Shown: positions 2-50,533 of the stretch, one piece after another
Numbering within the stretch: the stretch's first letter is position 1
Layout: each line of letters starts with the position of its first letter
IMG/VR virus record: IMGVR_UViG_3300027744_000019
Span: 2,295 to 66,294 of that record
Direction: 5' to 3' (one strand)
Source of the DNA: a virus
Taxonomy: Duplodnaviria; Caudoviricetes
Length of the DNA stretch: 64,000 bases
Notes under the pieces: model-generated
What the model saw: the letters and a program-made list of their open reading frames with translations, nothing else
What the model was told of the DNA's origin: nothing
Databases searched by the model: none
Position numbers and translations under genes: made by a program

Positions 2-3000
2 GAGTCATCTAACTTTTTATGTGCTACAACAGGAGCTACTATGCCTTCTTTTGGACCTGATCCTGTTGTCTTTAGGTATATTATAGGTGCTATTCAAATA
101 TTTTCAGATAAATGGATAATATACACAGCCGGACATAATGCTGGTGGAGTTGCTCTTATGTCTGAAATAGGTTTATTAGAAGAAGAAAGATGTATCTATA
201 GACCAATTGTTCAAGATTCTTGTCTTGGATTTGATAAAAGATTTTTAATTTCTGGTTCAGCAAGAGAAAGAGAAGATTGTTCTTGGCAAGTATATTGGGC
301 AGATGGTTTAAATCCAGATAGAATACTTAATGTTGGTGACCCACAAACATGGCCAGATTACTCATATCAATGGGAAGCTAATACTCTTATTAATCCTAAT
401 CAAGGATCTTATAATAATGCTATTAACTATTATGTTGACAATAATGGTAATAGACAACTATGGCCAGGTGTTGCATGGATTCAAGATTGTGATCCTTCTC
501 CAGCATGTCTTATTTGTAATGACACTAATGAATTAGACTGTGATGCAATAAGATTAGCTAGATTAGTAAATACCCCTTGTTTAAATGTTAAACTTGGAGA
601 AGCTGGAGGTAACTTAAGAAATGGTACTTATTTTGCTACAATTGCATATGCAATAAAAGGTCAAAGAGTAACTGATTATTTTTCTCCTAGCAATACACAA
701 CCTATTTATTTTCCAGATGATTTACAAGGAGCAATAACTATTGATATTGAAGCTGACACAGAAAATTTTGATGAATTTATATTAGTTGTTGTTCAAAATA
801 TTAATCAAGGAACAGTAGCAAAAGAAATTGGTATATACTCAACTAGAACAAATACAGTTGAATTAGATCAAATCAAAGATGAATTAATTACTGTTCCATT
901 AGAAATTATTCCAATAACTAATCCTGTATATGAAACATCAGACCAAATGACTGATGTTAACAATTACTTGTTAAGAGTTGGGCCAAGATCTAAATTTGAT
1001 TTTAATTATCAGCCTTTAGCAAATCTTATTAAAACTAAATGGGTATCTGTTGAATATCCTGCAAACTATTATACTAAGGGAGGTAATAAAGGAAGTTATT
1101 TAAGAGATGAGGTATATGCTTTCTTTATTCGTTGGGTGTATAATACAGGTGATAAATCTGCATCATATCATATTCCTGGAAGAATAGCAAAAGATTATAC
1201 CTATATTAGAAGCGGTTCTAATGTTCAAGTAACAGGGAATGAAAGAGATGAAGTTGTTCCTAATGGTATTCAAGACTTTAATACTCTTACATCTACAGAT
1301 CAATTATTTGAATCATATAATACAGCTAATTTAAATGGTAACCCAAATATTTTAAATACTATTTTACCAGATGGTGGGAAAGTTATTGCATCTGGAGAAA
1401 TGGGGTACTGGGAATCAACAGAAATATATCCAGACAATCAACCTGAAATTTGGAACTCTAGTCAATACTGTTGGACAGGATTAGATGGACACGCAGGTAT
1501 AATAGATCCTGTTATAGGAACAATTAGTTACTTTAATGACTTATGTGGTTTACCTATTAGACATCATAAATTTCCTGATAATTATCTAAGTCCTAACACA
1601 TTGCACTATGAACCTGCAGCAGGTCAAAATGATCCTAATCTTTTAAAGATTAGATTGATGGGTGTAATATTTGAAAATATACCATTACCAAAAGATAATG
1701 AAGGTAACGATATTCCAGGTATTGTAGGTTATGAAATCTTAAGAGGTTCAAGAGAAGGTAACCGAAGCATTATTGCTAAAGGTATGATTAATAACTTTAG
1801 AACTTATGAAATTAAAGGAGATGTGCAAAGAGATAGATTAGGCCTGTATGCTAACTATCCTTTTAATACAATTAAGTCTCCGCTAAATACTGGAACAGGT
1901 AGCCAACATAATACAGGTTTTAATGATCCATATATTAAAACATCTCCGTATCAACAGTCAGTACCTAAAGAAATTATAAGTTTCCATTCACCAGATACAA
2001 TGTTTAGGACTCCATTCTTAGAGTCTACTGAATTAAAATTATATGGTGCATTGTCTGGTTGGTCAGATCAAAGATTCCAAGAACCAAGTCAGCATCCTAA
2101 GTTCAAATTACTTAGTGACCTTACTATGACATTTGCTTTTGTAGCTGGTGTAGCGGAAGGTTTAGTTTCTATGCTTGGAAGTAAAAAGATTACTCAACCT
2201 GGTGCAAGTTATACTAGAATGTTTGGTCCTGATATAAGTGGTGGTGCTGCTGTTAATACAATTAATGGACCAAATGGACCTATACCAGGTACTATTGTAA
2301 CTACACCAAGTAATATTAATACTAATATTGATACTACCACTGAAGAATACACAAGTGCTGATCAAGGAACGGTTCAGACTGACCAAGTAGGTAACCCTGG
2401 AACACCATTACCAAACTCTTTCTTTGGTAAATTAGAAGCTTATTTTGATTTTGGCAGTATATTTACAAACACTTCTCAAGTTACAAATACTATTGAACCT
2501 ATTTTTGAAGACTTTAATTATAAAACTGGTTTTAAAAAAGGAGGGACTTTTACCGCACCTTCAATTGAAACTGATATTTCAGCTGCAGTATTCTTAGGAG
2601 GTGCCACAGGACAAGCTATATTAGCTGGTTTAGGTATAGCAAATAAATTTTTATATTACTTTGCTGAAGGTACTGATGTAGCTCTTCAAGCTATTTATGC
2701 ATTTATTAAATTTGATCAGTATGCATTACAAATGATATCACATGGATTATATGATTCATTTATATCTCCTATAAGTTTACAAACATCAATTGTAAATGGA
2801 CAAGTAGTTCAAGATGCTTATATAACAAGATTTAGAATTGGTGATGCTTTTTATATTAGAGATAATATTCAGGAAGTACAAACATTTGGACCACCAGCAT
2901 CTCAGAAAAGATATAGCATTAATAACTTAAAAAGATCTGATACAGTTACATTAAGAACTTTAACAGGTCCTTATGCTGTTCCTGGTTTTCCACAAGGTGC

Positions 3001-5482
3001 TGATGATGGTCCAAAATATATTCTTACTCCTGGCGGTATATATTATGATCAGTCTCTTGTAACATTATCTTATTTTGATAATGATGCTTCAGGACAAGGC
3101 AATGCTTGGGGTAATGCAGGAAATCCAAACTTTAAAAATAACATTGATACACCTTTCTCATTACCAATTGCAAGTCATTATGGTGCAATTAAAATAAGAA
3201 AAAGAAATCAGTATGGACAACTACAGTCAATTAAACAGATAACAATAACACCATGTGAACAAAAACTATCTGATTCTTATTATCCTTCACATACTACTAC
3301 TGAACAATATTTTTGCGCTGCTGATAGCTCAACATATTTTATTAAAAAAATTACAATGACTCCAGTGTTTTTTGGAGGTGACACATTTGTAAATAGATAT
3401 ACAGAAAAGAATACAATGTTCTTTTTCTATGATTGGTTATATAGTCAACCTGATGGTTTTGAATTTAACTATCTACTTAGGCAGATGATACCAGAACCAA
3501 GATTCTGGGTTAACTCTGCAGAGTATGATTTTGCAGAATTTTCAGATTTATTTGTTAACATATTTACACCAGGTAACAATCCTCCAGGTACGGGTTGGAA
3601 GCCAACTAATTTCTATAACATGGATTGTAATAACTATGATTATAGAGATGATTCAATTTTTAATTATCCTGGACTATTTAGACCAAAAGATTGTTATTTC
3701 TATTTAACTGCGTCAGCTGTAAGAGATTTCTTTGTTGAATCTGAAGTACTTGTAGATTTTAGAATTCAAGGTATTACTGATGCTGAAAAGCATTATGATC
3801 CATATAGATACACAGATCTAGATGCAATGTTTAATATGGACCCCCAAATTATTACAAGAGGTAATGAGTATAGATATGATTACTCATTAAGTATAACTAA
3901 AGCTTTTAGTCAGTATTTTTCTGCGGGTAATTTACAGAGTAGATATTATGATCCTTTTGTAGCACAATTATGTTATACTTACTATCCAGATAGAATCATT
4001 TATTCTTTACCACAACAACAAGAAGCTTTTAAAGATAGTTGGTCTGTATACTTAGTAAACAATTATAAAGAATTCAAGTCTCAGATTAGTGGTGTTAAAA
4101 GTGTAAATAAGAGTGGTATTATAATTACTTTTAAAAATGATAGTCCAATAATGTATCAAGGTGTTGATACACTACAAACAGATCTAGGTACTAAGATTAC
4201 TATTGGTGATGGTGGATTATTTAGTCAACCTGAACAATCTGTAGTTAACGCTGATAGAGCTTATGAATATGGTTCTTCTCAAAATAGATTATCAATACTT
4301 TCATCACCAGCTGGTATTTATTATATCTCACAAAACCAAGCTAAGATATTTGCATTTGGTCAAGGATTAAAAGAGATATCTCAGATTGGTCTTAAGTGGT
4401 GGTTTAATAATTTCTTACCTTATAAGTTAACTGAAGATTTTCCTGATTATCCATATCAAGATAATCCAGTTTCAGGTATTGGTTGTCAGTCATTGTATGA
4501 TAATGAGAACACTGTAATTTATTTTAGTAAAAAAGATTATAGACTTAAACCTGAATGGAAAAATAAAGTTGTTTATGTTCCATTAATTACTTTTGGTAGA
4601 AAGAAAGGACAAGGAGATTACTTCCAAATATTAAATCTTGACGGTAGTGTTCAACCAGGAATATATCAATTAGGGGATCCTATTTTATTTGAAGATGCTT
4701 CTTGGACTTTAAGCTTTGACCCTAAGAATGAACTATGGATTTCATTCCATGACTGGCATCCTAATTTATCTATTCCAACTAAGAATACTTTCCTTACTAC
4801 AAAAGGAAATACTATTTGGAAACATAATTCAGTATGTGATAATTTTTGTAATTTCTATGGTACTCAATATCCTTTTGAAATTGAGTTACCTATTACAACC
4901 GGACAAACGGTTACCACAATGAAGTCTGTAGAATATGTTCTTGAATGTTATAGAAGAAAAGCATTTAATTGTATTGATCAGTTTCATGTATTAGATTATA
5001 ACTTTGACAGAGCTGTTGTATATAATTCAGAACAAGCGTCTGGATATCTAAACCTTAATATTTTTCCTAAAAACAATGTAGTATTAAGCCAAACATATCC
5101 TCAGTTAAATCAATCTAACTTGTCTTCTTTTGATATTTTATTTAGTAAAGAAGAAAATAAATATAGATTTAATCAGTTCTGGGATATAACAAAAGACCGC
5201 GGAGAATTTCCAGTTGGTTCTGATTATCCACCTACTGGACCAGTAGTACCTGGAACTACAGTGCTTCAAGGTAATTATGATGAAAACATTCTTTGGAATA
5301 CATCATCTAATGGTTATATAAGAGAATTAAATCAAGGAAATCTAGACTATAATAAACCTCAATTACAAAGAAAGAAGTTTAGACACTACTTAAATTACTT
5401 GACCTTGATTAGAGAAAATAGTTCAGATACTAATATGATTTTAAAACTTGTAAATACTAAAAATCAAATATCTCTTAGATAA
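2..5482 (+). CDS. crAss-like tail stabilization (muzzle-type) protein, 5'-partial
   Basis: The frame is open from base 2 (ESSNFLCATTGAT precedes the annotated ATG at 41), so the gene starts left of the window. It is >1800 aa with motifs I recognise from crAss-like stabilization proteins (SYHIPGR, VFFGGDTFVNRY, DFFVESEV, YEYGSSQNR). It lies immediately before the cargo/RNAP block. Confidence 0.75.
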   Translation, partial: ESSNFLCATTGATMPSFGPDPVVFRYIIGAIQIFSDKWIIYTAGHNAGGVALMSEIGLLEEERCIYRPIVQDSCLGFDKRFLISGSAREREDCSWQVYWADGLNPDRILNVGDPQTWPDYSYQWEANTLINPNQGSYNNAINYYVDNNGNRQLWPGVAWIQDCDPSPACLICNDTNELDCDAIRLARLVNTPCLNVKLGEAGGNLRNGTYFATIAYAIKGQRVTDYFSPSNTQPIYFPDDLQGAITIDIEADTENFDEFILVVVQNINQGTVAKEIGIYSTRTNTVELDQIKDELITVPLEIIPITNPVYETSDQMTDVNNYLLRVGPRSKFDFNYQPLANLIKTKWVSVEYPANYYTKGGNKGSYLRDEVYAFFIRWVYNTGDKSASYHIPGRIAKDYTYIRSGSNVQVTGNERDEVVPNGIQDFNTLTSTDQLFESYNTANLNGNPNILNTILPDGGKVIASGEMGYWESTEIYPDNQPEIWNSSQYCWTGLDGHAGIIDPVIGTISYFNDLCGLPIRHHKFPDNYLSPNTLHYEPAAGQNDPNLLKIRLMGVIFENIPLPKDNEGNDIPGIVGYEILRGSREGNRSIIAKGMINNFRTYEIKGDVQRDRLGLYANYPFNTIKSPLNTGTGSQHNTGFNDPYIKTSPYQQSVPKEIISFHSPDTMFRTPFLESTELKLYGALSGWSDQRFQEPSQHPKFKLLSDLTMTFAFVAGVAEGLVSMLGSKKITQPGASYTRMFGPDISGGAAVNTINGPNGPIPGTIVTTPSNINTNIDTTTEEYTSADQGTVQTDQVGNPGTPLPNSFFGKLEAYFDFGSIFTNTSQVTNTIEPIFEDFNYKTGFKKGGTFTAPSIETDISAAVFLGGATGQAILAGLGIANKFLYYFAEGTDVALQAIYAFIKFDQYALQMISHGLYDSFISPISLQTSIVNGQVVQDAYITRFRIGDAFYIRDNIQEVQTFGPPASQKRYSINNLKRSDTVTLRTLTGPYAVPGFPQGADDGPKYILTPGGIYYDQSLVTLSYFDNDASGQGNAWGNAGNPNFKNNIDTPFSLPIASHYGAIKIRKRNQYGQLQSIKQITITPCEQKLSDSYYPSHTTTEQYFCAADSSTYFIKKITMTPVFFGGDTFVNRYTEKNTMFFFYDWLYSQPDGFEFNYLLRQMIPEPRFWVNSAEYDFAEFSDLFVNIFTPGNNPPGTGWKPTNFYNMDCNNYDYRDDSIFNYPGLFRPKDCYFYLTASAVRDFFVESEVLVDFRIQGITDAEKHYDPYRYTDLDAMFNMDPQIITRGNEYRYDYSLSITKAFSQYFSAGNLQSRYYDPFVAQLCYTYYPDRIIYSLPQQQEAFKDSWSVYLVNNYKEFKSQISGVKSVNKSGIIITFKNDSPIMYQGVDTLQTDLGTKITIGDGGLFSQPEQSVVNADRAYEYGSSQNRLSILSSPAGIYYISQNQAKIFAFGQGLKEISQIGLKWWFNNFLPYKLTEDFPDYPYQDNPVSGIGCQSLYDNENTVIYFSKKDYRLKPEWKNKVVYVPLITFGRKKGQGDYFQILNLDGSVQPGIYQLGDPILFEDASWTLSFDPKNELWISFHDWHPNLSIPTKNTFLTTKGNTIWKHNSVCDNFCNFYGTQYPFEIELPITTGQTVTTMKSVEYVLECYRRKAFNCIDQFHVLDYNFDRAVVYNSEQASGYLNLNIFPKNNVVLSQTYPQLNQSNLSSFDILFSKEENKYRFNQFWDITKDRGEFPVGSDYPPTGPVVPGTTVLQGNYDENILWNTSSNGYIRELNQGNLDYNKPQLQRKKFRHYLNYLTLIRENSSDTNMILKLVNTKNQISLR

Positions 5483-8400
5483 TGAAAAAGTTAAAAGTAG
5501 ATAAATCTAAGATTGCTGGCAAAGGATTGTTTACCACAGATACTTTTGAGCAAGGAGAAATGATTGGATTGGCACATGAGAATGACCAACCCAGTACTTT
5601 TATTGGTAAGTACCATAATCACTCTGATGAACCAAATGCAGTAAGTATTAAGCTTGGAAATAAAAGATATATAATGGCTAAGAGACCTCTCAAGAAAGGA
5701 GAGGAGATTACTACTAATTACAGACTACAACCAGAGTTAGAACAACCAGAAGATTTTGCAAAGGGAGGACTTGTAAAGATGCCAAAGCCTAGTAAGCAAG
5801 GTCTTGCATCTAAAAAGTTTTCTAAAAGCTTAGAAGCAACAAATAGATTATTTACTGAGAACTATTTATTTTCTAAACCTAAGTCTAAAAAGAATAAAGT
5901 ATTTGATCCAAATGCTAAATATGAAGACGGAGGATTTTTACCTATGGCTGAATATGGAATGCCTTTAGGTGCTGGAATATCTCAGAACTACCAAGGAAGA
6001 AGAAAGTTTATTCATCAGGATGGCGGAGTAATATCTCAAGAAGATATTGATGCTGCTAACAATGCTATGATGAAAGCAAGATTAGCATATGCAAACATGC
6101 ATGGTAATCCTGCTGCACAGAGAATGGTTGTTGCACCAGACCTACCTTATGACTTTGGCAATGGCATGACAGGCACACACTATATGGCATCTATGGATAA
6201 TTATGCAGTGCCACAAATTCAAGATATTGATGGTCAACTTATGCTTGGTGATTTTGGTCCTGAGTCTGCAGAAGCAATTAGATTTGACAATCCTGAAGAT
6301 GCAATGTATTTTGCAGAACACTATAAAGAAGTTACACCTGATGAATCTTATAGACAAGAAGAATATGCAACAGGTGGTGTAGCTTTTCCATTAGATCTCA
6401 ATCCAGAGACTATGAAAAAATATAGAGAGGTTCTTAAAGTTCAAGAAAATTCTCTTAAATCTGGATATAGAAAAGCTGAAGATAAATGGTATCCTCATAG
6501 AAGTCCTGAGGGTGGTGCGGATACAGTTGGATTTGGTCATAAACTTATAGGACCAGATGCAAATAAATACAATAAAGGCTTAACTACAAAAGAAGCTGAG
6601 AACTTACTTGATTCAGATATATTAAAACATCAAACTGTTGCTGAAAATCTAATAGATAAAAAATACGGTAAAGGTACATTTGACAGTCTTCCTCAGGATT
6701 CTCAAATGTTACTTGTAGATTATGCATATAATGGTGTATTAAATAGTTTTCCAACATTTACAGATGCACTTGTAAAAGGAGACAAACAAACTATGCTCAA
6801 AGAATATGAAAGGTTTGGAAACACTGGTCCATTGAAAGAAAGAAATGCTTGGACACAAGACACTATACTTAAGGGAAATTTTAATCCAACACCTAAAGCT
6901 TTACCAAAAAACAATACCTCTACATCATTACAAAATAATAAAGATAAATGGGGTAGGTCTCCAAATACTATTTGGTATGGATTTAATCCTGATACAAAAC
7001 AATATGAACAAGAAGGTTTAGATTGGGAAAAATATGGTGATCCAGGACCAGGAATTGGGGGACCGGGTGCAGGAGCATATATTACTCCCGGAGAAAGATT
7101 ATCAGATTATCAAAACAATAAGACTAAAAAACTTCAAGAAGGTGGTGATATTATATCTCAACAAGGTTGGGATTATATGAAAGAAGGTGACAAGTATTTA
7201 ACGAGAAGAGCTGGTGCACAAGATTGGATTGAAGCACAAGGTAAGCCTTTACAAGCCATTAAGCAAAATATATTTCAAGAGGCTTCTGCTTCAGTACCAG
7301 TTGCTCCAGTAACAACACAACCTATACAACCTACTACTCAACCCGCATCTGGAGATCCAAAAGTTTTAGAAATACAAACTAAGCTTAAAGAGGCAGGATA
7401 TGATTTAGGTAACTACGGTCCTAATAAAGATGGTATAGATGGTGTAATGGGTAATAGAACTAAACTTGCATATGATGCTTTTAAAGCCAATGTTCCACCA
7501 GAAGCAGTTAAAGTACCTAAGACAACTACAAAACCTACTTTAAATTATACTGTAAATAGAAATCTTCCAGAAGGCTATCTTCCTGTAATGCAAGGGTATG
7601 GACAAGAAATTTGCACTAAAGATAAGGGTTGTTCAGCCAATGTTAGTATAAAAATGGAAAACCTTTTGGGTAATCTTGCAGATGGATCATTATGGGCTAA
7701 TGACGCATGGTTTAATAAATCAGATATACTCAATAAAGGAGGAGACCTTGTTTATGATAGTAGTTCTAAAAACTATAAAGAAATGGGTAAAGTTCCAAAA
7801 GAAGTTTACTCTAAATTACAAGTAGGGGATTACGTACAACTTAATAGAACTGATACTGCATCTAGTGGTAAGTTTGCTGCACAAACCAAAGATGGATTAC
7901 AAAATGAACAGATAGAACATTTAGGTTTTGTTGTAGGTAAAGATAAAGACGGTACCCCATTGATATGGCATGGTTCTGAAACTGGTAAAGCTTTTATTAA
8001 AAGAATAGATGAGCCAATTACTTTAGATGATCATGATAAAAACATCTTTACATATAAAGTATCTTCTATTGTAAGATCACCTAATCTTAAAGATGTAGAC
8101 TTTTCTGGTCTTCAGAATTCTCCATACTATACTCCTGTTGATCCTAACAAAAAGTTAGTACCTAAGCAAGGAGCTACTGAAGTACAAACCCAAGCAACTA
8201 AAACATTTAATAATGCAGTAGGACAGTTTAAGAATTTAGGATACTCTCAAGATGATGCTAACTATGTTGGACAGATTCTTATTGGAGGGATTATGCAAAA
8301 TGAATCTGAGTCCGGAGAGTCATGGTCAAGATTACCAAAAGAAGCTGCAGCAACTGTAGTAAAAAATTATTTAGGATATGGTAACTTTGAAGGAGATGAA

Positions 8401-9291
8401 GCTAGTGTAGGTTATTATCAAATGAAACCTAACTACAACTTTAAAAATAAAGATGGTGCATTAAATCCATTAGGTAAAAAATTACAAAAGTTAGGTGTTG
8501 AAGTAGATGATATTACCAGTAACAATATTGATGCACAAACATTAGCAGGCACATTAATACTTCTTGATAACTATAAAAAACTAAAAGAAAATCCAGACTT
8601 TGATTCTAAGACTAATTTATATAAAGGTAAGATACCTGCATCTTATATTCTTGCAAAATCATGGCAATCAGGTTCAGGATGGGAGTCAAGAGAAAAGTAT
8701 CAGAAGTTTTTAAATGACTTAGATATAGACTATAGTGATAATGCTTTAAATTCAGCAGCAAATTTAATTGGTGTTACAGAAGGTAAATCTATTGATCCAG
8801 AATTAGCAAAACTTCAACAACAACAAGCAGCTATAAGAGCTAAGAAAGTTGAAGAAAATAGAAAGAAGGTTTTTGCAGAAGAACAAAAATATCAAACTGT
8901 AAAAGCTGACACTGCTAGAAAACTTCCTACAGTTGCGGAGTCTACAGCTATAAATCCAATTTATAACCAAAGAGGTCCTAAGTCTTTTGATGCTGCTTCA
9001 TATATAGCACAAGGTCCTAGCAAAACTATTTATACTTATGCTGGTAGACCTGGTGCAATGTATAAAAAAGATGACAAAGGAAACTGGTATATTAATCTTG
9101 GTTCACAAACAGGAAATCAATTTGTTAAGATAGAAGATAAAGATGGTAGTAGATCTGCAATATTAAATAAATCTGCAGTACCTAGCGCATCAAAAAAATA
9201 TAGTCAAGGTGGTGGTATATACATGGAACTAACAGATTCAGAAATTGAACAGTTTAGAAGAGGTGGTTATATTATTGAGGATCTGGATTAA
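5482..9291 (+). CDS. Multidomain virion protein: SET domain + lysozyme-like muramidase + PG-binding domain + NlpC/P60-like amidase + SLT-like transglycosylase
   Basis: SET: KSKIAGKGLF, YHNHSDEPN (5611-5637), EEITTNY. Lysozyme-like: HRSPEGGADTVGFGHK...LLVDYAYN (about 6420-6870). PG_binding_1-like: VLEIQTKLKEAGYDLG...GIDGVMGNRT (about 7360-7480). Cys/His pair: GCSANVS...IEHLGFVVG...WHG (about 7610-7980). SLT-like: IMQNES...SVGYYQMK (about 8290-8430). TAATG coupling to the upstream gene. Confidence 0.7.
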   Translation: MKKLKVDKSKIAGKGLFTTDTFEQGEMIGLAHENDQPSTFIGKYHNHSDEPNAVSIKLGNKRYIMAKRPLKKGEEITTNYRLQPELEQPEDFAKGGLVKMPKPSKQGLASKKFSKSLEATNRLFTENYLFSKPKSKKNKVFDPNAKYEDGGFLPMAEYGMPLGAGISQNYQGRRKFIHQDGGVISQEDIDAANNAMMKARLAYANMHGNPAAQRMVVAPDLPYDFGNGMTGTHYMASMDNYAVPQIQDIDGQLMLGDFGPESAEAIRFDNPEDAMYFAEHYKEVTPDESYRQEEYATGGVAFPLDLNPETMKKYREVLKVQENSLKSGYRKAEDKWYPHRSPEGGADTVGFGHKLIGPDANKYNKGLTTKEAENLLDSDILKHQTVAENLIDKKYGKGTFDSLPQDSQMLLVDYAYNGVLNSFPTFTDALVKGDKQTMLKEYERFGNTGPLKERNAWTQDTILKGNFNPTPKALPKNNTSTSLQNNKDKWGRSPNTIWYGFNPDTKQYEQEGLDWEKYGDPGPGIGGPGAGAYITPGERLSDYQNNKTKKLQEGGDIISQQGWDYMKEGDKYLTRRAGAQDWIEAQGKPLQAIKQNIFQEASASVPVAPVTTQPIQPTTQPASGDPKVLEIQTKLKEAGYDLGNYGPNKDGIDGVMGNRTKLAYDAFKANVPPEAVKVPKTTTKPTLNYTVNRNLPEGYLPVMQGYGQEICTKDKGCSANVSIKMENLLGNLADGSLWANDAWFNKSDILNKGGDLVYDSSSKNYKEMGKVPKEVYSKLQVGDYVQLNRTDTASSGKFAAQTKDGLQNEQIEHLGFVVGKDKDGTPLIWHGSETGKAFIKRIDEPITLDDHDKNIFTYKVSSIVRSPNLKDVDFSGLQNSPYYTPVDPNKKLVPKQGATEVQTQATKTFNNAVGQFKNLGYSQDDANYVGQILIGGIMQNESESGESWSRLPKEAAATVVKNYLGYGNFEGDEASVGYYQMKPNYNFKNKDGALNPLGKKLQKLGVEVDDITSNNIDAQTLAGTLILLDNYKKLKENPDFDSKTNLYKGKIPASYILAKSWQSGSGWESREKYQKFLNDLDIDYSDNALNSAANLIGVTEGKSIDPELAKLQQQQAAIRAKKVEENRKKVFAEEQKYQTVKADTARKLPTVAESTAINPIYNQRGPKSFDAASYIAQGPSKTIYTYAGRPGAMYKKDDKGNWYINLGSQTGNQFVKIEDKDGSRSAILNKSAVPSASKKYSQGGGIYMELTDSEIEQFRRGGYIIEDLD

Positions 9292-9293
9292 AC

Positions 9294-9340
9294 CTATAAA
9301 GTTTATAGCTTAAAATAAAATTTATTATATTTAGTATATA
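9294..9340 (+). promoter_or_regulatory. Putative late promoter (AAGTTTA-N20-TATATTTA) overlapping a 7-bp palindrome
   Basis: AAGTTTA at 9299-9305 and TATATTTA at 9326-9333, inside the palindrome CTATAAA-G-TTTATAG (9294-9308). The same two elements with the same spacing occur at 15240/15267. Confidence 0.55.
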
Positions 9341-9349
9341 CCCAACGTA

Positions 9350-12300
9350 ATGAAAAAAAGAGTCAAAGTATATAAAGCAGAAAATGGCCAAGGTGCCTAT
9401 ATGAGCAACCTTGCTAAATTTATGCAAAAAGCTCAGATGGGTGGTCAACCTACTATGGAACAAATGAGTTATCCAGGGGATCAACAAGGTCAAGAAGGTC
9501 AGCAAATGGACCAGGATCAAGTAATCAATATGATTGCTATGGATATTACTAATGGTAGACCAAAGGAAGAAACTATGGCTAAACTTACAAATATTGTAGG
9601 TTTAGATTTTCAAACAGCAGACCAATTCTTTGAAGGTGTAAGAGCACAAATTAATAATAGAGAAGAAGAAGTAGAAGAAGAATCTGTTGAAGAAGAAGCT
9701 ACTCCTCCAGATCCTTCAGGCAATCTAGAAACTGTTGAAAAACAAGAAGAGGAAGAAGGTCCTTCTAATAATGATATTGCTTATCAAGATGCTTTAAATG
9801 ATGATTCAGATGAAGCTGTTATGGAAGGTGATGTTGAAGGCATGTTTCAAATGGGTGGTGATGTAAGTGAAGATTTTGGTGATGAGTATCCAGTTACTCT
9901 TCCAGATGTTTCTGCTTATCTTCCTTCTGATATGTATAACTTTTGGGATCCACAAAACCCAGCTGCACAAATTGCTTTTAGTGATCAGATGTATATGAAT
10001 CCTACACAACAAGAAGTTGATAGTTCATATACAGAAATGCCGGAAGAACCACAAATGGCTAAGTACGGTGGTTATAAGAAAGAAAAGAAAACTTATGTTA
10101 ATGCTATTCTAAAAGCAAATAGAAAGCAGATGGGTGGAGATGCTGTATCTGAAGAATCAGAAGCAGACGCTACAGGTCAAAATTATAGAACAGCAAAGCT
10201 TAAAGGTTTTGTTGGTATACTCAAAAATAATGCTACAGAATCTTTATTAAGAGAACAAGCTGAACAACAGTTTGATCAAATGATGCAGATGGGTGGAATG
10301 GAACAAGATGTTGAAAATCCCATGCACCATCTTGAAGCATTTTCTAATGCTACTGGTAATATCTTTAATGAAGATATGAATCAAATTGCTATGGCACAGC
10401 GCGGTGGTTTTTTACAAAGACTTAGAGATAGAAATCAGCAAGCACCAAACATGGGCTTTATGCAACGTAGAGGTTTTATGAATCCTATGATGCCTATTGA
10501 ATCAATTGATGTAAGAAGATCTGGTAGATTGTTTGGTAGACCAAAAGAATATACTGTAACTTTTGGACCTCCAACATTACCTGGTGGAGCTAATGGTGCA
10601 TATCCTGGTGCATTTTATGGATATGGTGCAGGGTATTCTGGAGTACCTGGTACAACAAAAAAAGTTACTACAAAAGGAACTATAATTAATGAAGCTGCAA
10701 AAACAGTAAATCAAGAAGCATCTAAAGAAGTAGCTAAAAATACTCCAGAGTCTGAGGCTACACAAAAGTCTGCAGAATCTACAAATCAAGCTGAAGGTAC
10801 TACAACTACAAATACAGGAGGAGGTGGTGGTAGTGCTACTACAACAACTAATCAAACTCAACAACCAGTTGCACCTAAAGTAATTACTAAGCCAGTAGTT
10901 ACATCTAATGTAAAAAGAGACAAATGGGGAAGACCAGAAGGAGATAAATGGTATGGCTTTAATCCTGCAACTAAAAGGTATGAAGCCGGACCTAATGTTA
11001 AACCATTAGACTTTAGAACAGTAAATGCTACTCCAGGATTATCTAATGTACAACAAGGTGTTCAAAGCTTTGTTGCACCTAAGTCTAGAGATGAAGCAAT
11101 TGCTGTTAATCAACAGTATTTTGAAAATCAAAGAGCTAACTGGTTACAGCCACAAGGAATGCTTGTTGATGTGAATGCTAATCCAATCGGTAAAGTTACT
11201 GAAGAAGATGTAAAGAGAGCAAAACAAAATGTTGCTATTAAACAAGAAGCTGATAAAGTTAAAAAAGGTGACACAAGTGGTTTATCTAATACTCAGATTA
11301 TAGCCTTAAGACTTAACTATAGCCGTCCTGGTGAAGCTGCTAAATTAAAAAAATCTAATCCTTCTCTTTATAAAACATTATTTGGTCAAGAAGAAGGTGG
11401 GGTAGTGGACTTTGATCAACTTCAAAATATGGAGTATCTACAAAGATTTATATATGGGGGCAATGAAGATCCTTCTCTATCATATATTAATCAAGCAGAT
11501 ATGGACTATACTAATTCTAAAGATGTTACTGATCCTTATTTCCAATATGGTGGAGTAAATCAAATTACAGGAATTAGAGATGATAGAGGTCAACAAATGC
11601 AAGGATATGTAAGACCAGATGGTACTTATATAAAAGATATTACTGTTAATAAAACAGGAATGTTTGGTAGACCAAAACAATACAGTGTTACCTATGGTCT
11701 TTCTAGTGAAGGAAAAAATCCTACAGCTGCACAGTTTAGTTTAAACAAACCAGCTGATGGTAAAGATGCGGATACTAAAAAAGAAACTCCACCACAAGCC
11801 TCTACTACCAATACTGATACTAGAACTAATACAGAAGGTTTAGACTTTAAATCAGCAAGAGCTATTAGAAAAGGTGAAAGACAAACGGCTAGACAAACAG
11901 CAAGAGGAGAAAGAAAATTTGGAAATGCAGAAGAAGCAGCTCAACAATATTATAGAGATAATCCAATGGAAACAATACCTACAAGAAAGGTAGGTAGAAT
12001 TGAAGCTAATCCTTTACAGCCAATGCCTCTTGGAAAGTTACCAAGTAGAGTTGATATGCCACAACGCAATTTTGTTTCTCAAAATCCAATGGAAGTTGAA
12101 AGACAGAGAAATCTAGAATTGTTTAATACTTATATGAGTCCTGGTCGTTATTCACCACAATTAACTGCTAATCAGTTAGAAGACTTTAGTACTCTGTCTC
12201 AAAATCCTTCTGGTTTACCGGATTATGGATCTATGCCACAAACACGTCCTAATATTTATAGAGAAAGGCAATCTACTGAACCATCAGGCACTAGTTATGA

Positions 12301-13018
12301 AAATTATTTAGATTTCTATAATAGTGGTTATCCTACAGAACCAGGAATGGCTAAAGAAGCTCCTCTTACAAGAGAACAATTTTTTAATTGGGCTGGTCGT
12401 TATGATGATGGTGGTTTTATTGGAGCTAATCCTGTGGTATATACAGATAACCCAGCTCTTGTTGGCCAGTCAAATGTAGATATGATTACATTAAATCCTG
12501 GTATTCAAGGTGCACAAGGTCAAGTTAATTGGGCTGACTTAAATAATAATAGAGGATTTAATTTAAATCAACCTCAACAATATACACAAGATCCTAATCA
12601 AATTAATAGTGATCAAGCTCAAAGAGCATACTCAGGTGATGTTACTGTAGATGTAAGAAATAGATTATCTAATGATCAGTTACAAGCAGGAATGAATCTT
12701 GCTAATGCAGGCATTAGAGGTATTACTGGAATGAAGAACAAAATGGATGATGCCAGAATTGCTCAAGATTTCTATGATAATTTTACTTCAGATAATATTT
12801 ATGCTTCTGATCCAAGTAAAGATGTAGGAGACTATTCAGAAGCTGGACTATACCAACCAAGTGCGCAAGGTCAAGTATGGGGTAGTAGATCTAAACAATA
12901 TGGTGGTGACATTTCTTTTGGAGAAGATCCAGATTATGTTGAGGGAGATGAAGTCTATATGACAGATGATGAGATCAGACAATATATGGCCAATGGTGGT
13001 CAAGTAGAATATCTATAA
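9350..13018 (+). CDS. Putative virion cargo protein (acidic, Q/M/G-rich, about 12 xxGG motifs)
   Basis: 1222-aa ORF in the structural block. It has an internal repeat (FGRPKEYTVTFG / FGRPKQYSVTYG) and shares DKWGR..WYGFNP and a C-terminal motif with the upstream gene. Confidence 0.6.
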   Translation: MKKRVKVYKAENGQGAYMSNLAKFMQKAQMGGQPTMEQMSYPGDQQGQEGQQMDQDQVINMIAMDITNGRPKEETMAKLTNIVGLDFQTADQFFEGVRAQINNREEEVEEESVEEEATPPDPSGNLETVEKQEEEEGPSNNDIAYQDALNDDSDEAVMEGDVEGMFQMGGDVSEDFGDEYPVTLPDVSAYLPSDMYNFWDPQNPAAQIAFSDQMYMNPTQQEVDSSYTEMPEEPQMAKYGGYKKEKKTYVNAILKANRKQMGGDAVSEESEADATGQNYRTAKLKGFVGILKNNATESLLREQAEQQFDQMMQMGGMEQDVENPMHHLEAFSNATGNIFNEDMNQIAMAQRGGFLQRLRDRNQQAPNMGFMQRRGFMNPMMPIESIDVRRSGRLFGRPKEYTVTFGPPTLPGGANGAYPGAFYGYGAGYSGVPGTTKKVTTKGTIINEAAKTVNQEASKEVAKNTPESEATQKSAESTNQAEGTTTTNTGGGGGSATTTTNQTQQPVAPKVITKPVVTSNVKRDKWGRPEGDKWYGFNPATKRYEAGPNVKPLDFRTVNATPGLSNVQQGVQSFVAPKSRDEAIAVNQQYFENQRANWLQPQGMLVDVNANPIGKVTEEDVKRAKQNVAIKQEADKVKKGDTSGLSNTQIIALRLNYSRPGEAAKLKKSNPSLYKTLFGQEEGGVVDFDQLQNMEYLQRFIYGGNEDPSLSYINQADMDYTNSKDVTDPYFQYGGVNQITGIRDDRGQQMQGYVRPDGTYIKDITVNKTGMFGRPKQYSVTYGLSSEGKNPTAAQFSLNKPADGKDADTKKETPPQASTTNTDTRTNTEGLDFKSARAIRKGERQTARQTARGERKFGNAEEAAQQYYRDNPMETIPTRKVGRIEANPLQPMPLGKLPSRVDMPQRNFVSQNPMEVERQRNLELFNTYMSPGRYSPQLTANQLEDFSTLSQNPSGLPDYGSMPQTRPNIYRERQSTEPSGTSYENYLDFYNSGYPTEPGMAKEAPLTREQFFNWAGRYDDGGFIGANPVVYTDNPALVGQSNVDMITLNPGIQGAQGQVNWADLNNNRGFNLNQPQQYTQDPNQINSDQAQRAYSGDVTVDVRNRLSNDQLQAGMNLANAGIRGITGMKNKMDDARIAQDFYDNFTSDNIYASDPSKDVGDYSEAGLYQPSAQGQVWGSRSKQYGGDISFGEDPDYVEGDEVYMTDDEIRQYMANGGQVEYL

Positions 13019-13027
13019 CTTTGTAAC

Positions 13028-15226
13028 ATGTTAAGAAAAGTTAGAATTAAAGCAGTTCCTAAAGCAAGAACTGGATATCAAGTACAAGGCTCTTTAGCAA
13101 ATGATGTACCTGCCTTTGGTGGTGCAGACTATAACGCATATATTGGTGCTCCTAGAACTGAAGTTTCTAGAACATTAACTGCTGTACCTAGAGAGGTAGC
13201 AAACTTAGAAGCAGAAGGTGGAGAAACTGTAGTAGGGGATCTTGATGGTAGCACAATGCCATCATTTAAAACTATTGTAGGTCCTCGTCACTCTCAAGGT
13301 GGTGTACCATTAGCTTTGCCGGATGATAGCTTTATCTTTAGTGATACAAAGTCTATGGGGATTTCTGATCCTAAGATTTTAAAAATGTTTAATAAGTCTG
13401 CTAAGAAAGGTGGTTATACACCGGCAGAGCTTTCTAAACAATATGATATCAATAAATACAGAAAGATACTTCAAGATCCTAACTCAGATAAGATTTCTAG
13501 GAATACTGCTGAGATAATGATTAAGAACTATGTAATGAAATTAGGTGCATTAGCTCTTGCTCAAGAATCTAAGAAAGGTTTTCCACAAGGTATTCCACTT
13601 ATTGCTCAACCTTACATGGAAGCAAATAAGATTGCTGAAGAAGATCTTATTCCAGAACTTGCAGCACAAAAAGAGCAAGAAGCACAAATGATGCAGGCTC
13701 AACAACAAATGCCTCAAGAGCAAATGGCTCCACAAACTATGCCTGATGGACAACCTATTGCAATGCCACAAGAAGGTGCTGGAATGATGCAAGATCCTTC
13801 AATGATGAGTGCACCTCAAGAGATGGCTCCTCCTTCACCAGAGATGATGCAACAAGCTCCAATGGCAGCATATGGTATGGAGATGGGTGGTTTCTATCCT
13901 GAATATGCTTTTGGTGGTTATTATCAAAAAGGTGGAAGTAAAGCTAGACCCAAAACAAAAGAAGAGTTAGAAAAAGATATTGCTTCTGGTAAAGTAAAAC
14001 CTGAAAGAGTAAAAACATTACCAGATGGTACAACAGAAATTACAACAAAAGACGGTAAAAAAGTTTATGCAATAGGTACTGTTGAAGAACAAGAAGAAGA
14101 TTTTAGTAACATTAAAAAATCAAAAGTTACTAATCTTGCAACAGATAAAGAAAAATACGAAAGAGATATTTGTGCAAAAATTAAAGCTTCAAAAAAACCA
14201 ATTGCATATGCAATTGCAAAAGGATGGATTTCTGCAGCAAGAGCAGGTGAATTTGCAGGATGTGTAAGTGCAGAAGCATCTGCAAAAAAAGAAACTTTAC
14301 AAGTTTTTGATTTAGAAGAAACACCTTCAACTATCCCAGGTAAGAAAAAGTGTAAATGTACTGATCCTACAACTGGAGAAGTTAAAATCTTTGAAATAGA
14401 AAAAGAAGAAGAATGTATCTGTGAGTCTGAAGAAACTACAGAAGGTTCTTCTTTTCAAGCAGCTCCTCAAAGAAATGCTGAATTCTGGCAACAAGATATA
14501 ATTAATGCTGCTGGAGCTTTTGGTGATAGAATGGGATTAAGAAAAAGAAATGCTTGGGAACCAAGGGCAGACTTAGAAGAACCAAGACCAACATTTAAAG
14601 ATCAAACACAAAGACAAGCTCAAGGTGCTGCTGCTGCTAATATTGCTTCACAAGCTACTGCTCAATTTGCTGGACCACAAAATACTGCTAGACTAATGGC
14701 AATTCAAGGTCAACGTGCACAGGATGCTTCTAATGTTAGTAGTCAATTTGATAATGAAAATGTGGGTATTGCAAATCAGTTTGAAGCAAATCAGGTTGGT
14801 GTAAGAAATCAAGAGGCAGCAATGAATCAACAAATTGCTGCTAGATTGTATGATAAAAATATTATTGGACAACAACAGTTTGATAATGCTAAAAGACAAG
14901 CTGCTGCTAATATGCGTCAAGCATACAATACAGCACTTACAAATAAATGGAAGACAGATGCATTAAACCAAATGTATCCTAATTATCAAGTGGATCCACT
15001 ATCTGGAGGTAGAGTACAATATACTCCAACACCAAAAACAGTAACTCCAAATAAAGCCTCTCAAGATGATATTGAATATATCAGAGATTTAGAAAAAGCT
15101 GGACTTTCAAAAGATGCAATTTCAGCTGCAGTTAAAGCAAGATTTGCTACTAAAAAGTTCGGTGGACCAACAATGTTTGAAGACGGAGGATTTATTTATA
15201 CAGTGTTTCCAGCTGTAACTCTCTAA
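13028..15226 (+). CDS. Putative crAss-like virion cargo protein
   Basis: 732 aa. The N-terminal motif NLEAEGGE...GPRHSQGGVP...FIFSD resembles conserved crAss-like cargo proteins. It has an M/Q/P-rich linker and a Q/A/N-rich helical C-terminal half. Confidence 0.6.
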   Translation: MLRKVRIKAVPKARTGYQVQGSLANDVPAFGGADYNAYIGAPRTEVSRTLTAVPREVANLEAEGGETVVGDLDGSTMPSFKTIVGPRHSQGGVPLALPDDSFIFSDTKSMGISDPKILKMFNKSAKKGGYTPAELSKQYDINKYRKILQDPNSDKISRNTAEIMIKNYVMKLGALALAQESKKGFPQGIPLIAQPYMEANKIAEEDLIPELAAQKEQEAQMMQAQQQMPQEQMAPQTMPDGQPIAMPQEGAGMMQDPSMMSAPQEMAPPSPEMMQQAPMAAYGMEMGGFYPEYAFGGYYQKGGSKARPKTKEELEKDIASGKVKPERVKTLPDGTTEITTKDGKKVYAIGTVEEQEEDFSNIKKSKVTNLATDKEKYERDICAKIKASKKPIAYAIAKGWISAARAGEFAGCVSAEASAKKETLQVFDLEETPSTIPGKKKCKCTDPTTGEVKIFEIEKEEECICESEETTEGSSFQAAPQRNAEFWQQDIINAAGAFGDRMGLRKRNAWEPRADLEEPRPTFKDQTQRQAQGAAAANIASQATAQFAGPQNTARLMAIQGQRAQDASNVSSQFDNENVGIANQFEANQVGVRNQEAAMNQQIAARLYDKNIIGQQQFDNAKRQAAANMRQAYNTALTNKWKTDALNQMYPNYQVDPLSGGRVQYTPTPKTVTPNKASQDDIEYIRDLEKAGLSKDAISAAVKARFATKKFGGPTMFEDGGFIYTVFPAVTL

Positions 15227-15294: not shown

Positions 15295-18123
15295 ATGGCA
15301 ACTTACCTACAGGGTGTCACGGATTATATACCACAGTTTCAGCCTTTTCAGCCTGACTTAAACTTCTATGGTAATATAATGCAAACAAAGCAAACCCAGT
15401 ATGACAATAACTGGAAAGCTTTAAATGACATGTACGGCAAATATTATTACGCTGATCTTACAAGACAGAGTAACGTAACTAATAGGGACCAATATATTAA
15501 AAATGCAGAGTTTAATCTACAGAGAGTTTCTCAGATGGATTTATCTCTAGAGCAAAATGCAAATCAAGCACTACAGGTTTTCAAACCATTTTATGAAGAT
15601 AAGAATCTCATAAAAGATATGGTTTGGACAAAGAACTTTAACTCTGAAATGAGTAGAGCAGAAGCTCTTAAAGGTTCTTCAGATCCAGAAAGAAATAAGC
15701 AATACTGGAGTACTGGTGTAGCAGCTATGCAATATCTTAAAGAAGAATTTAAGAATGTAGATGATGCTAAGGCTTCTTCATTTGGTAATGTAGCATATAC
15801 TCCATTTGTAGATGTTCAAGAAAAGGCTATGGATATTGCTAAAGACTTTGGAGATATTGAGTCTGCAAACTTTAGTAAAGATGGTAGATGGATTATCAAA
15901 TCTAAAAATGGTCAGCAACTTGAAGAACCATTGACTAAGTTATTTGAATCCAGATTAGGTAATGACCCTGCTGTACAGGAGATGTATAAGACACAGGCAT
16001 ATGTAGACAGAAAGACATATGCTAAAACTAATGCTGCTCAGTTTAATGGAGATGAGAATGCTGCAGAGATGAAGTATTTAGAGAATCAGTTTACTGTTCT
16101 CAAAGCACAAAACAATCTACGGTACATGCAACTCCAAGAGAATCAAGGTACGTATGATACAAGAATAGCAGATATTCAAAAGCAAATAGATAATGGTACC
16201 GCAGGTCCAGATGCTAAGATGCAACTTGAAGCTCTTAAAATGAACAAAGACATTAATGGTCAAGTTCTTGATAGAGCTAAGAAAGAAAATGATTTACTTA
16301 ATGGTGGTCAAGTAGATAATGCTGCTGGCTCTAATGGGTTTAAAAATCCTTATGGTGATATTGAGTCGCTAAGATATAAAGTAGATAGTGGTGTTGCTTC
16401 TTCATTAATGCAAAAATCATTAGGTGAAGCAGCTCATGTTCTTGCTTATAGAAACTCTAAAGTAGATCTTGATGCAAATATCTATAAGGTAAATGAGGAG
16501 AAGTTCCAACAGAATGCCGCACTTACTAAGATGCGTATTCAAGGAGCTAAAGAAGTTGCAATGCTTAAAGAAAACATGGCAGCTAAAAGAGAAGCTGACA
16601 AAGCAAGAGTTGCGGCAGGTACTCACTACTATGATGAAAATAATCAAGCTACTGCTTATGAAGATCAAAAGAACTTCTTTGTAATTAAGAATGCTAAAGG
16701 ATCCGCAACAGATAAACAGAATGTTATTGGTCTTAGCCGTGATATGGTTAAGATGAAAACTACTGATGCTGCAATGCCTTGGGCTAAGACTACAGTTAGC
16801 ACATTGTTTGAATTGTATAACAACGGTAAAATCTCAAAACAAAAATTAAATGAGATCTTACACTATGACAAGAATCCAAACATTAGTCTTACTGAATTCA
16901 ACAAGAAACTACAAAACAATCCTGTAGCTTTCTTAACCAGAGAAGTTGGAACAAAAGATCTTGAAAACATTAAGGATAGATATGACAACTGGATTAGATC
17001 TAATTCACAGTTATCTGAACTTAAAAGAGGTGATAGAGCTAAGCAAATTGTAGCTTCTAATGTTGAGTTTCAGGATTATATCAACTATGTAAAAGAAGAT
17101 AAAGCTTGGAGACAAGAATCTACTAAAGCTGTTGAAAGACAACTTATGAAAGGTGGATACGGAGATGCTGCATTCTTATATGACCAATCAGGTACACTTA
17201 GAAGTGAGAAAGAATTTAAAGCTGCTGTTTTTAATAAAACAGGTAGAAGCGCAAATGTTGACTATAAAGATATGTTAACTGCAGCTGATGAAGCTTGGAG
17301 ATCTGAAAAAGTTGTAAGAAAACCTGTTGTAGGTTTATCAGAATTTTATACAAAAGGTACTGGTGTATTTTCTGAAGGTGCAACAGCTCTTCAAATTAAT
17401 CCAAGAAGTTCATATGGTAGAAAATACTATGGTGAAGTTTATAATGATTTAAGAAACTTAGACTTTGGTGATACAACTAAAGTAAGATCTTCTTTCCAAG
17501 GTTATTCTAAATCAAACTGGGAACAAGTCGGTGGAGCTAAAAATGCTAAGACAGCTGCATTGTTGTCTCAGTTACAAGCAGACATGAACTCACCTAAATC
17601 AAAAGTTGGAACATTTACATTAGGTGTTGCACCAGTTGCAACAGGTAGTACAAAAAGAGCTGCTATAATAATTAAGCCAACAAATGAATGGCTTAAGCAA
17701 TATGTATCTACAGATAAAGATCAAAAGAATAATTTGCTTACTCAACAAGAAGCACAGGCAATCTTAAAGAATGGTATTAACATTATGACGGATGCTAAGT
17801 CTATGAATAATAGTATGTACAATGCTTCCTTTAAAGATCCACTCTCTGCATATGTAGATTCAAAAGGTAAATATACTTACTCAGACCCACTAGATAGTAG
17901 ATTTAGAATTGATATTACAAAGAATGAATTTGGTACAGGAGACTATACAGTAACTACACAGTATCCAGTTTGGAATCCTGAAACTAATAAATATGTGTTA
18001 ACTACAATGACAGAGACTCAAACTCAATTTGGTAACAATCTTACTTCAAATAGAAATGAGCTGGCATTTGACTATTTTGATCAAGTAAAACTAACAAATC
18101 AATATTATTATAATGGCCAGTGA
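15295..18123 (+). CDS. Putative virion/ejection protein
   Basis: 942 aa with N-terminus YIPQFQPFQPDLNFY...KQTQYD, of a kind I recognise from crAss-like structural blocks. Mostly predicted helical. Confidence 0.55.
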   Translation: MATYLQGVTDYIPQFQPFQPDLNFYGNIMQTKQTQYDNNWKALNDMYGKYYYADLTRQSNVTNRDQYIKNAEFNLQRVSQMDLSLEQNANQALQVFKPFYEDKNLIKDMVWTKNFNSEMSRAEALKGSSDPERNKQYWSTGVAAMQYLKEEFKNVDDAKASSFGNVAYTPFVDVQEKAMDIAKDFGDIESANFSKDGRWIIKSKNGQQLEEPLTKLFESRLGNDPAVQEMYKTQAYVDRKTYAKTNAAQFNGDENAAEMKYLENQFTVLKAQNNLRYMQLQENQGTYDTRIADIQKQIDNGTAGPDAKMQLEALKMNKDINGQVLDRAKKENDLLNGGQVDNAAGSNGFKNPYGDIESLRYKVDSGVASSLMQKSLGEAAHVLAYRNSKVDLDANIYKVNEEKFQQNAALTKMRIQGAKEVAMLKENMAAKREADKARVAAGTHYYDENNQATAYEDQKNFFVIKNAKGSATDKQNVIGLSRDMVKMKTTDAAMPWAKTTVSTLFELYNNGKISKQKLNEILHYDKNPNISLTEFNKKLQNNPVAFLTREVGTKDLENIKDRYDNWIRSNSQLSELKRGDRAKQIVASNVEFQDYINYVKEDKAWRQESTKAVERQLMKGGYGDAAFLYDQSGTLRSEKEFKAAVFNKTGRSANVDYKDMLTAADEAWRSEKVVRKPVVGLSEFYTKGTGVFSEGATALQINPRSSYGRKYYGEVYNDLRNLDFGDTTKVRSSFQGYSKSNWEQVGGAKNAKTAALLSQLQADMNSPKSKVGTFTLGVAPVATGSTKRAAIIIKPTNEWLKQYVSTDKDQKNNLLTQQEAQAILKNGINIMTDAKSMNNSMYNASFKDPLSAYVDSKGKYTYSDPLDSRFRIDITKNEFGTGDYTVTTQYPVWNPETNKYVLTTMTETQTQFGNNLTSNRNELAFDYFDQVKLTNQYYYNGQ

Positions 18124-50522: not shown

Positions 50523-50525
50523 ATA

Positions 50526-50533
50526 CAAATATA
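50526..50533 (-). promoter_or_regulatory. Bacteroidota -7 promoter element (TAnnTTTG) directly upstream of the homing endonuclease
   Basis: - strand TATATTTG-TAT-ATG, an exact match to the TAnnTTTG consensus in the short spacer. Confidence 0.5.

Follow-up and report, generated by a model that had tools for sequence, protein, structure and literature searches.

A conserved Gly-Gly motif recurs in the cargo-position proteins of an uncultured crAss-like phage

A five-residue motif ending in Gly-Gly recurs through three consecutive proteins of an uncultured crAss-like phage. It is real, specific to proteins in cargo position and conserved, it lies in linkers and at termini, and it coincides with the breakpoints at which modules are exchanged. 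The window, by which we mean the whole 64,000-nucleotide stretch analysed, spans positions 2,295 to 66,294 of IMG/VR record IMGVR_UViG_3300027744_000019; this 64-kb fragment is almost all of the 66,294-base record, which is judged 56% complete. The three proteins are encoded by open reading frames (ORFs) directly 3' of the tail muzzle gene and on the same strand. We regard these ORFs as encoding ejected cargo proteins because their position matches the cargo block of crAss001, an inference from synteny: in crAss001 the muzzle gene gp44 is followed by genes for cargo proteins C1 (gp45) and C2 (gp46) and then for the giant RNA-polymerase-associated proteins, all of which were detected in virions (PMC10172136). 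By this analogy, proteins 1–3 are most likely carried in the particle and injected. The explanation to which we lean, by a little, is that the motif is an uncut joint or docking element of these modular cargo proteins. The genes and their core motif sites are as follows (aa, amino acids).

41..5482, plus strand: tail muzzle protein gene (Pfam PF25731 crAss_MUZ, E-value 2.6e-24), marking the start of the cargo block
5482..9291, plus strand: cargo-position protein 1, 1269 aa, with SET, lysozyme, a weak PG-binding-like stretch and a C-terminal mini-module; seven core motif sites
5755-5769, 5920-5934, 6013-6027, 6364-6378, 7132-7146, 9199-9213 and 9253-9267, plus strand: core motif sites of protein 1
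9350..13018, plus strand: cargo-position protein 2, 1222 aa, mostly predicted disordered; ten core motif sites
9431-9445, 9845-9859, 10124-10138, 10283-10297 and 10394-10408, plus strand: first five core motif sites of protein 2
11447-11461, 11540-11554, 12401-12415, 12893-12907 and 12986-13000, plus strand: last five core motif sites of protein 2
13028..15226, plus strand: cargo-position protein 3, 732 aa, with possible remote structural likeness to crassvirus cargo protein 1; four core motif sites
13877-13891, 13904-13918, 13922-13936 and 15176-15190, plus strand: core motif sites of protein 3

The motif is more frequent in proteins 1–3 than their composition predicts. Relative to within-protein shuffling, the Gly-Gly (GG) dipeptide is observed 39 times versus 24.8 expected (P = 0.002), and the form [FYM]xxGG is observed 15 times versus 2.7 expected (P < 0.004 for each protein). 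The five other giant ORFs together contain two [FYM]xxGG sites versus ∼4.5 expected; a preliminary description of this DNA had noted by eye that the motif is far sparser in the downstream giant genes. The muzzle gene is not enriched by the shuffling test. Similar results are obtained with local shuffles of 20- or 40-residue stretches, which keep local composition: [FYM]xxGG is found 15 times versus 3.2–3.7 expected, QxGG 11 times versus 1.6, and either pattern 22 times versus 4.6–5.1, a count that none of 2000 shuffles reached. The preliminary description had proposed a test against the rest of the proteome, and here the motif density of proteins 1–3 is 24–30 times that of all other ORFs in the window. 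In the three complete relatives used for this contrast (120–122 kb, one with terminal repeats), the three post-muzzle genes have 8–26 times the density of the remaining proteome. The context of the GG sites also differs, with 22 of the 39 in proteins 1–3 showing the motif versus 5 of 46 in other ORFs (Fisher 7e-6).

These numbers bear directly on the trivial explanation that the pattern reflects a Gly- and aromatic-rich makeup or selective reading by eye. That explanation draws some support from the very permissive residue class that the preliminary description allowed three positions before the GG, and from protein 1, in which GG alone is not enriched (12 versus 10.5 expected). However, the excess persists under every null model tried, global and local shuffles included, the proteome-wide contrasts hold in four genomes, and the sites are invariant across distant homologues. 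The shuffle tests and proteome-wide contrasts therefore refute chance or composition, to which we assign next to no probability.

Every pentapeptide listed in the preliminary description is present in the gene to which it was assigned, except AEYGM, which lies in the first gene (aa 159) rather than the third. The motif described there is real but was drawn too loosely, with A, K, Q, H and L allowed at position −3, and the list left out GG sites that do not fit it (SPEGG, GIGGPG, LNKGG, ILIGG, TLPGG, a run of five Gly (G5), PAFGG, EAEGG, HSQGG and PLSGG). A sharper consensus is [F/Y/M/K]-Q-[Y/F/M]-G-G. In an unbiased logo built from 738 unique GG sites in 68 family members, in which homologous positions inflate the counts, position −3 is F, M, Y or K, position −2 is Q (43% of sites, 5.9-fold), position −1 is Y, F or M, and the GG is followed by F, M, Y or V at +1 and then by L, I, T or V. 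Profiles of the long N- and C-terminal tags find few internal copies in the window, with a single weak N-tag-like match at aa 142-174 of protein 2 (independent E-value (i-E) 7e-4); it is therefore the five-residue word, not the long tags, that repeats in the window. Our literature searches found no description of a Gly-Gly joint motif. At some GG sites the motif continues into an L-P-x-A-x-x-G extension, as at window positions 5920-5970 (G-G-F-L-P-M-A-E-Y-G, protein 1) and in relatives, and the P-K-A-R-T-G at 13055-13078, after the leader of protein 3, is another example of this type.

The motif is conserved well beyond the window. We found 94 metagenome homologues of protein 2 and more than 2000 of protein 3 (one listed protein 3 homologue comes from a Tara sample), and the enrichment of about fivefold is kept across 214 listed homologues, the most distant included. 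Related loci were retrieved with protein 3 as the query; the related-locus scan with protein 2 as the query found nothing. The 50,697 records of the GenBank phage collection contain no DNA or protein match for the lineage, which seems to be an abundant but uncultured crAss-like lineage absent from GenBank phage records. In an alignment of 40 members of the protein 2 family (alignment A2), mean column identity is 31%, and little is invariant apart from the GG pairs, the leader at the N-terminus and the element at the C-terminus. Ten of the 12 motif GG pairs listed for this protein in the preliminary description are 100% conserved, while the P-G-G and the G5 run are not.

Outside the cargo block of the complete relatives, the motif is found mainly in small Gly/Lys-rich ORFs of the head module, a module that is not in the window. 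These Lys-tailed head-module ORFs (85–230 aa) begin with tandem K-M-Q-x-G-G and contain 8–19% Gly, with 15–19% in the three smallest. Judged by their sequences, they are candidates for additional internal proteins that carry the motif.

G002:C1:46360-46617: small head-module ORF with K-M-Q-x-G-G
G001:C1:54334-55026: small head-module ORF with K-M-Q-x-G-G
G001:C1:55666-56052: small head-module ORF with K-M-Q-x-G-G
G004:C1:111876-112271: small head-module ORF with K-M-Q-x-G-G

The preliminary description had also claimed that the motif delimits modules, and this holds only in part. In protein 1 it is borne out at five sites. Pfam places SET at aa 38-80 (E-value 3e-8), Phage_lysozyme at aa 344-447 (E-value 4e-4) and, below threshold, PG_binding_1 near aa 626-663 (E-value 0.019). 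The ends of BLAST segments shared with the proteins of 23 relatives cluster at the motif sites at aa 95, 150, 181, ∼298 and 1243; 29 of the 59 ends, which are not independent, fall within five residues of a motif site versus 8% expected. The borders marked in this way include the edge of SET and the edge before the lysozyme; the claim fails at aa 753 and 935. Sequence and profile searches of the PDB returned nothing except a sub-threshold viral SET match.

Protein 2 has no Pfam or PHROG match. The AlphaFold2 (AF2) model of a 92%-identical homologue has a mean predicted local distance difference test (pLDDT) score of 44, with 805 of 1164 residues below 50. None of the motif GG pairs lies within a predicted helix or strand, 7 of 12 lie no more than three residues past the end of a predicted helix, and all but the C-terminal one are in segments of pLDDT 28–41.

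In protein 3 (mean pLDDT 58), AF2 predicts a domain at aa 41-225, an unstructured linker at aa 228-304 and a helix of ∼100 residues at aa 552-649. Three motif sites occupy the last 20 residues of the linker, directly before the next domain, and the reading of the motif as a module border is sound for this cluster (aa 284-303) and for the C-terminus. It does not extend to the GG sites at aa 31, 64, 91 and 128, inside the folded N-terminal domain, which are, as modelled, ordinary structural glycines. The C-terminal GG pairs, at aa 712 and 720, are kept in 85–100% of 27 homologues.

15152..15223, plus strand: C-terminal element of protein 3, with two GG sites ahead of an end rich in aromatic residues and Pro; pLDDT below 50

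Foldseek searches of BFVD with this model returned 'Cargo protein 1 compact domain-containing protein' (E-values 3e-4 and 1.8e-3, TM ∼0.1), and the model suggests that protein 3 is probably a remote counterpart of crassvirus cargo protein 1. The same model had no Foldseek match in the PDB, and the crAss_CARG1 family (PF25725) had no match at E ≤ 1 in the record of the window, in four relatives or in pieces of proteins 1–3. Taken together, the motif is enriched beyond composition, sits in low-pLDDT linkers and forms a conserved island among diverging flanks, the features by which short linear motifs are recognised.

In proteins 1 and 2 the C-terminal sites are part of the same acidic unit of about 30 residues, referred to here as the mini-module and described by the profile of alignment A3.

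9193..9288, plus strand: C-terminal acidic strand-helix-Gly-strand mini-module of protein 1, aa 1238-1268 (i-E 5.6e-14)
12917..13015, plus strand: C-terminal acidic mini-module of protein 2, aa 1190-1222 (i-E 2.4e-18)

A GG precedes the unit, which runs from a short strand through a helix opening with T/S-x-x-E and a Gly to a last strand with an acidic end. In the AF2 model of the protein 2 homologue (homologue numbering), the strands are at 1142-1147 and 1159-1163 and the helix at 1148-1156 (pLDDT 69), and the GG forms the turn that joins the helix to the last strand. The second Gly is the sole invariant column; across the protein 1 family, Q, N, D or K frequently takes the place of the first Gly, and the other positions are retained. 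A profile search matched 1056 representative clusters, 149 of them at E ≤ 1e-10, and these best 149 proteins mostly have two to four copies each, of which 120 are C-terminal and 225 internal. Copies flank payloads such as VanY carboxypeptidase, and the type found in protein 1 is also internal in proteins of relatives. The joint motif lies no more than 16 residues downstream of 47% of internal copies versus a 7% background. Pfam has no model for the mini-module, and a suspected likeness to the SHOCT domain was not supported by Pfam.

Proteins 2 and 3 both begin with a basic leader that is predicted to form a strand.

9350..9379, plus strand: basic N-terminal leader of protein 2, predicted beta strand at aa 2-9 (AF2 pLDDT ∼66); M1, K2, K3, V5 and Y8 invariant in alignment A2
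13028..13078, plus strand: basic N-terminal leader of protein 3, followed by the P-K-A-R-T-G element; conserved in alignment A1

At four loci proteins 2 and 3 form a single polypeptide of 1475–1862 aa that has neither the mini-module nor the leader; the conserved stretches that flank the two elements meet directly, by way of two joint motifs.

L023, 7910-13498: fused protein 2+3 homologue
L027, 7853-13162: fused protein 2+3 homologue
L025, 8096-12523: fused protein 2+3 homologue
L030, 267-5405: fused protein 2+3 homologue

Because both elements are lost together upon gene fusion, the mini-module and the leader that follows it may be partners. In such a docking pair, the acidic mini-module of one cargo protein would bind the basic strand at the N-terminus of the next protein in gene order, and a non-covalent train of proteins 1, 2 and 3 would set the order of packing and ejection. 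Several observations are consistent with this arrangement. In a tree built from protein 3 homologues, the fused forms group in a single clade (support 100/100) nested among split forms, and a second clade (96/96) has neither mini-module nor leader, its genes still being separate. Among non-identical genes, one that ends in the module is followed by a gene with a basic leader in 34 of 34 cases versus 11 of 77 otherwise, an association that is mostly inherited synteny. The charges of the two elements, as read from the sequences, are complementary. However, the co-loss amounts to only two independent events, leaders occur without an upstream module in several lineages, and 225 of the 345 module copies are internal, with no N-terminus following them; moreover, a limit of one leader per polypeptide would equally explain the loss upon fusion. 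Prediction of a complex between the C-terminal region of protein 2 and the N-terminal region of protein 3 (score 0.22, mark 0.32) speaks neither for nor against binding. The co-occurrence and joint loss, with their two independent events and leader exceptions, suggest from sequence that module and leader form a non-covalent connector. We hold the docking pair to be possible but doubtful; it is a refinement of the uncut joint explanation and compatible with it. In one clade (L011, L014, L015-L017 and L022, with ORFs ending near 9975-9985) a different, basic-ended and helix-like tail replaces the acidic module of protein 2, and protein 3 starts without a strand of the V-R-I-K type; this tail may be a second type of connector.

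One of the two uses that the preliminary description had offered for these sites is cleavage of the cargo proteins into separate enzymes by a phage maturation protease. In its wider form, a phage or host protease would cut after Gly-Gly and so free SET, lysozyme and other modules, either at head maturation or after ejection. The sites do fall in linkers predicted to be flexible, at the edges of modules and close to both termini, and Q-x-G-G resembles a SUMO-type P4–P1 pattern. In addition, the small basic Gly-rich head-module proteins, with their tandem K-M-Q-x-G-G start, are reminiscent of adenovirus core precursors, and the zincin-VWA gene at 50567-51748 is the sole peptidase-like gene seen in the window. 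Enzymes that cut at GG include adenain, the African swine fever virus (ASFV) protease pS273R, SUMO and ubiquitin proteases and the C39 peptidases. The search for a clan CE or other protease that the preliminary description called for covered seven Pfam families in five relatives that are 97–100% complete, and none was found. Peptidase_C5 (PF00770) and Peptidase_C48 (PF02902) had no match there at E ≤ 1, nor had S78, S77, ClpP (S14) and S49 (PF04586, PF03420, PF00574 and PF01343), while C39 (PF03412) had no match over the cut-off, the best being 11 bits within a 2506-aa frame. The motifs are, moreover, mostly internal or C-terminal, unlike the N-terminal double-glycine leader of the C39 system. 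The logo also fits poorly, with hydrophobic residues at P5 and P3 and Q at P4, whereas the adenain consensus has M, I or L at P4 and G-G at P2–P1, and conservation extends past the GG. Several further observations argue against cutting: the first Gly of the C-terminal element is replaceable in relatives, tandem sites in some relatives are only 5–6 residues apart, and cutting at the C-terminal sites would free just 5–8 residues. In crAss001, the portal-bound segment 425-552 of C1 is ordered through GG 427-428, and that site is therefore uncut in the virion; the structure paper mentions neither cleavage nor the motif (PMC10172136). We found no support for cutting, consider processing unlikely and infer that the motif is not cleaved.

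Alternatively, the aromatic/Gln/Gly peptides could be cohesive stickers of the FG-repeat or prion-like type, which by multivalent self-association condense the cargo in a DNA-free zone of the capsid. The high copy number per protein, the tandem arrays in some relatives and the M/Q/Y/G-rich, largely low-confidence protein 2 would suit such a role, and a cargo zone that excludes DNA has been described for crAss001 (PMC10172136). Stickers ought to be interchangeable repeats, yet the positions are strictly conserved at module borders, the giant cargo proteins do without the motif, and there is no direct evidence for this reading; we consider it quite improbable. The other use put forward in the preliminary description, a repeated docking tag, fits better than cutting, since the motif is confined to cargo-position proteins, conserved on both sides of the GG, placed in linkers and termini and found at breakpoints.

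We therefore return to the uncut joint or docking element. Under this explanation, proteins 1–3 would be beads on a string, with payload or helical modules separated by flexible linkers. The word [F/Y/M/K]-Q-[Y/F/M]-G-G would be the conserved joint that ends the preceding helix, its Gly residues acting as helix stop and turn, and would lead into a linker or a small connector module, of which the acidic mini-module would be one. Uncut joints would allow the modules to be stored, unfolded and threaded through the tail singly, and could double as repeated handles for cargo loading and ordering, so that the motif would act as both hinge and handle. Several points weigh against this explanation. 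No binding partner was identified in this analysis. The downstream giant RNA-polymerase-type cargo proteins are without the motif, which is therefore not a universal packaging tag. AF2 confidence is low exactly at the motifs, which leaves the helix-stop reading dependent on weak models. The motif definition was sharpened after the data had been seen, homology among sites raises the counts used for the logo and the breakpoint test, and, as the negative protease searches cover only seven Pfam families, a protease of a new kind or one from the host is possible. A wider extension, in which GG joint, acidic connector and basic leader form an order-wide crassvirus cargo code that marks internal cargo and links it into an ordered train threaded through the tail, is tentative and in our view more doubtful than probable.

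Crassviruses are among the most abundant phages known. How they pack several megadaltons of protein into head and tail and then release it in sequence awaits an answer (PMC10172136), and a further paper names structures of crassvirus ejection proteins as a need (PMC13434306). The motif offers an easily mutated handle that marks joints and ends of cargo proteins. It predicts where modules start and end, which proteins are cargo in uncultured genomes, and which short elements may matter for cargo loading and ejection order, and it could serve as an annotation signature for cargo genes without detectable homology.

The remainder of the window contains further large ORFs and a replication module. 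ORFs of 942, 2130, 4455 and 1138 aa come next after proteins 1–3. The first ∼22 residues of the 942-aa ORF (window 15295-15360) are nearly identical across relatives whose other proteins are only 40–55% identical. This start, also seen in the matching ORFs of L003-L035, is Q/P/F-rich and without the GG motif, and might constitute another kind of N-terminal signal, carried by the next cargo protein, the fourth after the muzzle. The start of the 2130-aa ORF, the fifth post-muzzle protein (window 18113-18180), has a word L-D-x-L-G-P-E-[YF]-G that is conserved across divergent relatives. The replication module, which starts at 41.4 kb and lies largely on the opposite strand, encodes a family B polymerase, a primase-like Toprim protein, a DnaB-like helicase, a PD-(D/E)XK nuclease, the zincin-VWA protein and homing endonucleases. 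Two GIY-YIG homing-endonuclease-like genes, one GIY-YIG+NUMOD1 and one SegE-like, are inserted among the replication genes.

50567-51748, minus strand: zincin-like metallopeptidase fused to a VWA-like domain (DUF2201_N / DUF2201 / PhageMetallopep), replication module
49782-50528, minus strand: GIY-YIG homing-endonuclease-like gene
52893-53318, minus strand: GIY-YIG homing-endonuclease-like gene

The closest comparison among known systems is with crAss001 C1 (gp45), a long, partly disordered ejected protein with segments 214-245 and 425-552 ordered in cryo-electron microscopy (cryo-EM) maps (Bayfield et al. 2023, PMC10172136). Like the proteins described here, gp45 is long and partly disordered and is encoded directly after the muzzle gene. 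Its four A-[FY]-G-G sites (aa 209, 332, 427 and 562) bracket the two cryo-EM-ordered segments, and segment 425-552 starts two residues before GG 427-428. In gp45, however, the motif is modestly enriched (P 0.01–0.025) and lacks Gln, whereas here three motif-bearing proteins carry enzymatic payloads and a connector mini-module. BLASTP and hhalign comparisons with gp45 and gp46 found no homology; the best local alignments were only at aromatic-G-G sites and were not significant.

Processing by clan CE enzymes such as adenain and ASFV pS273R likewise involves x-x-G-G peptides at domain edges or near the termini of proteins packed in virions. Here, however, no C5 or C48 gene was found, the hydrophobic residue is one position farther from the GG, and the first Gly is dispensable in one element. 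The capsid targeting sequence of T4 internal proteins occurs only at the N-terminus, where the gp21 protease removes it. It too is a short peptide common to unrelated proteins that are in the capsid and injected, but the present motif is internal, repeated and also C-terminal, and no S77 homologue was found. Four other analogies were considered and dropped: sortase-type L-P-x-T-G, which differs in spacing and has no supporting feature, and release-factor-type G-G-Q methylation by the SET domain, transglutaminase Gln substrates and 2A-like ribosome skipping, each without a supporting feature.

The docking domains of polyketide synthases (PKS) and nonribosomal peptide synthetases (NRPS) are short complementary C- and N-terminal elements that join successive subunits. 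The mini-module and leader resemble them in being complementary termini on proteins of consecutive genes, both dispensable once the genes are fused; they differ in having no sequence or fold relation to them, in the additional internal copies of the mini-module, and in that their pairing is a proposal. Finally, helices are commonly capped by an S/T-x-x-E capping box at the start and by a Gly C-cap (Schellman or alpha-L) at the end. The helix of the mini-module likewise begins with T/S-x-x-E and ends with an invariant Gly, and predicted helices stop before 7 of 12 motif GG pairs in the protein 2 homologue, but ordinary caps are neither conserved five-residue words nor confined to one functional class of proteins.

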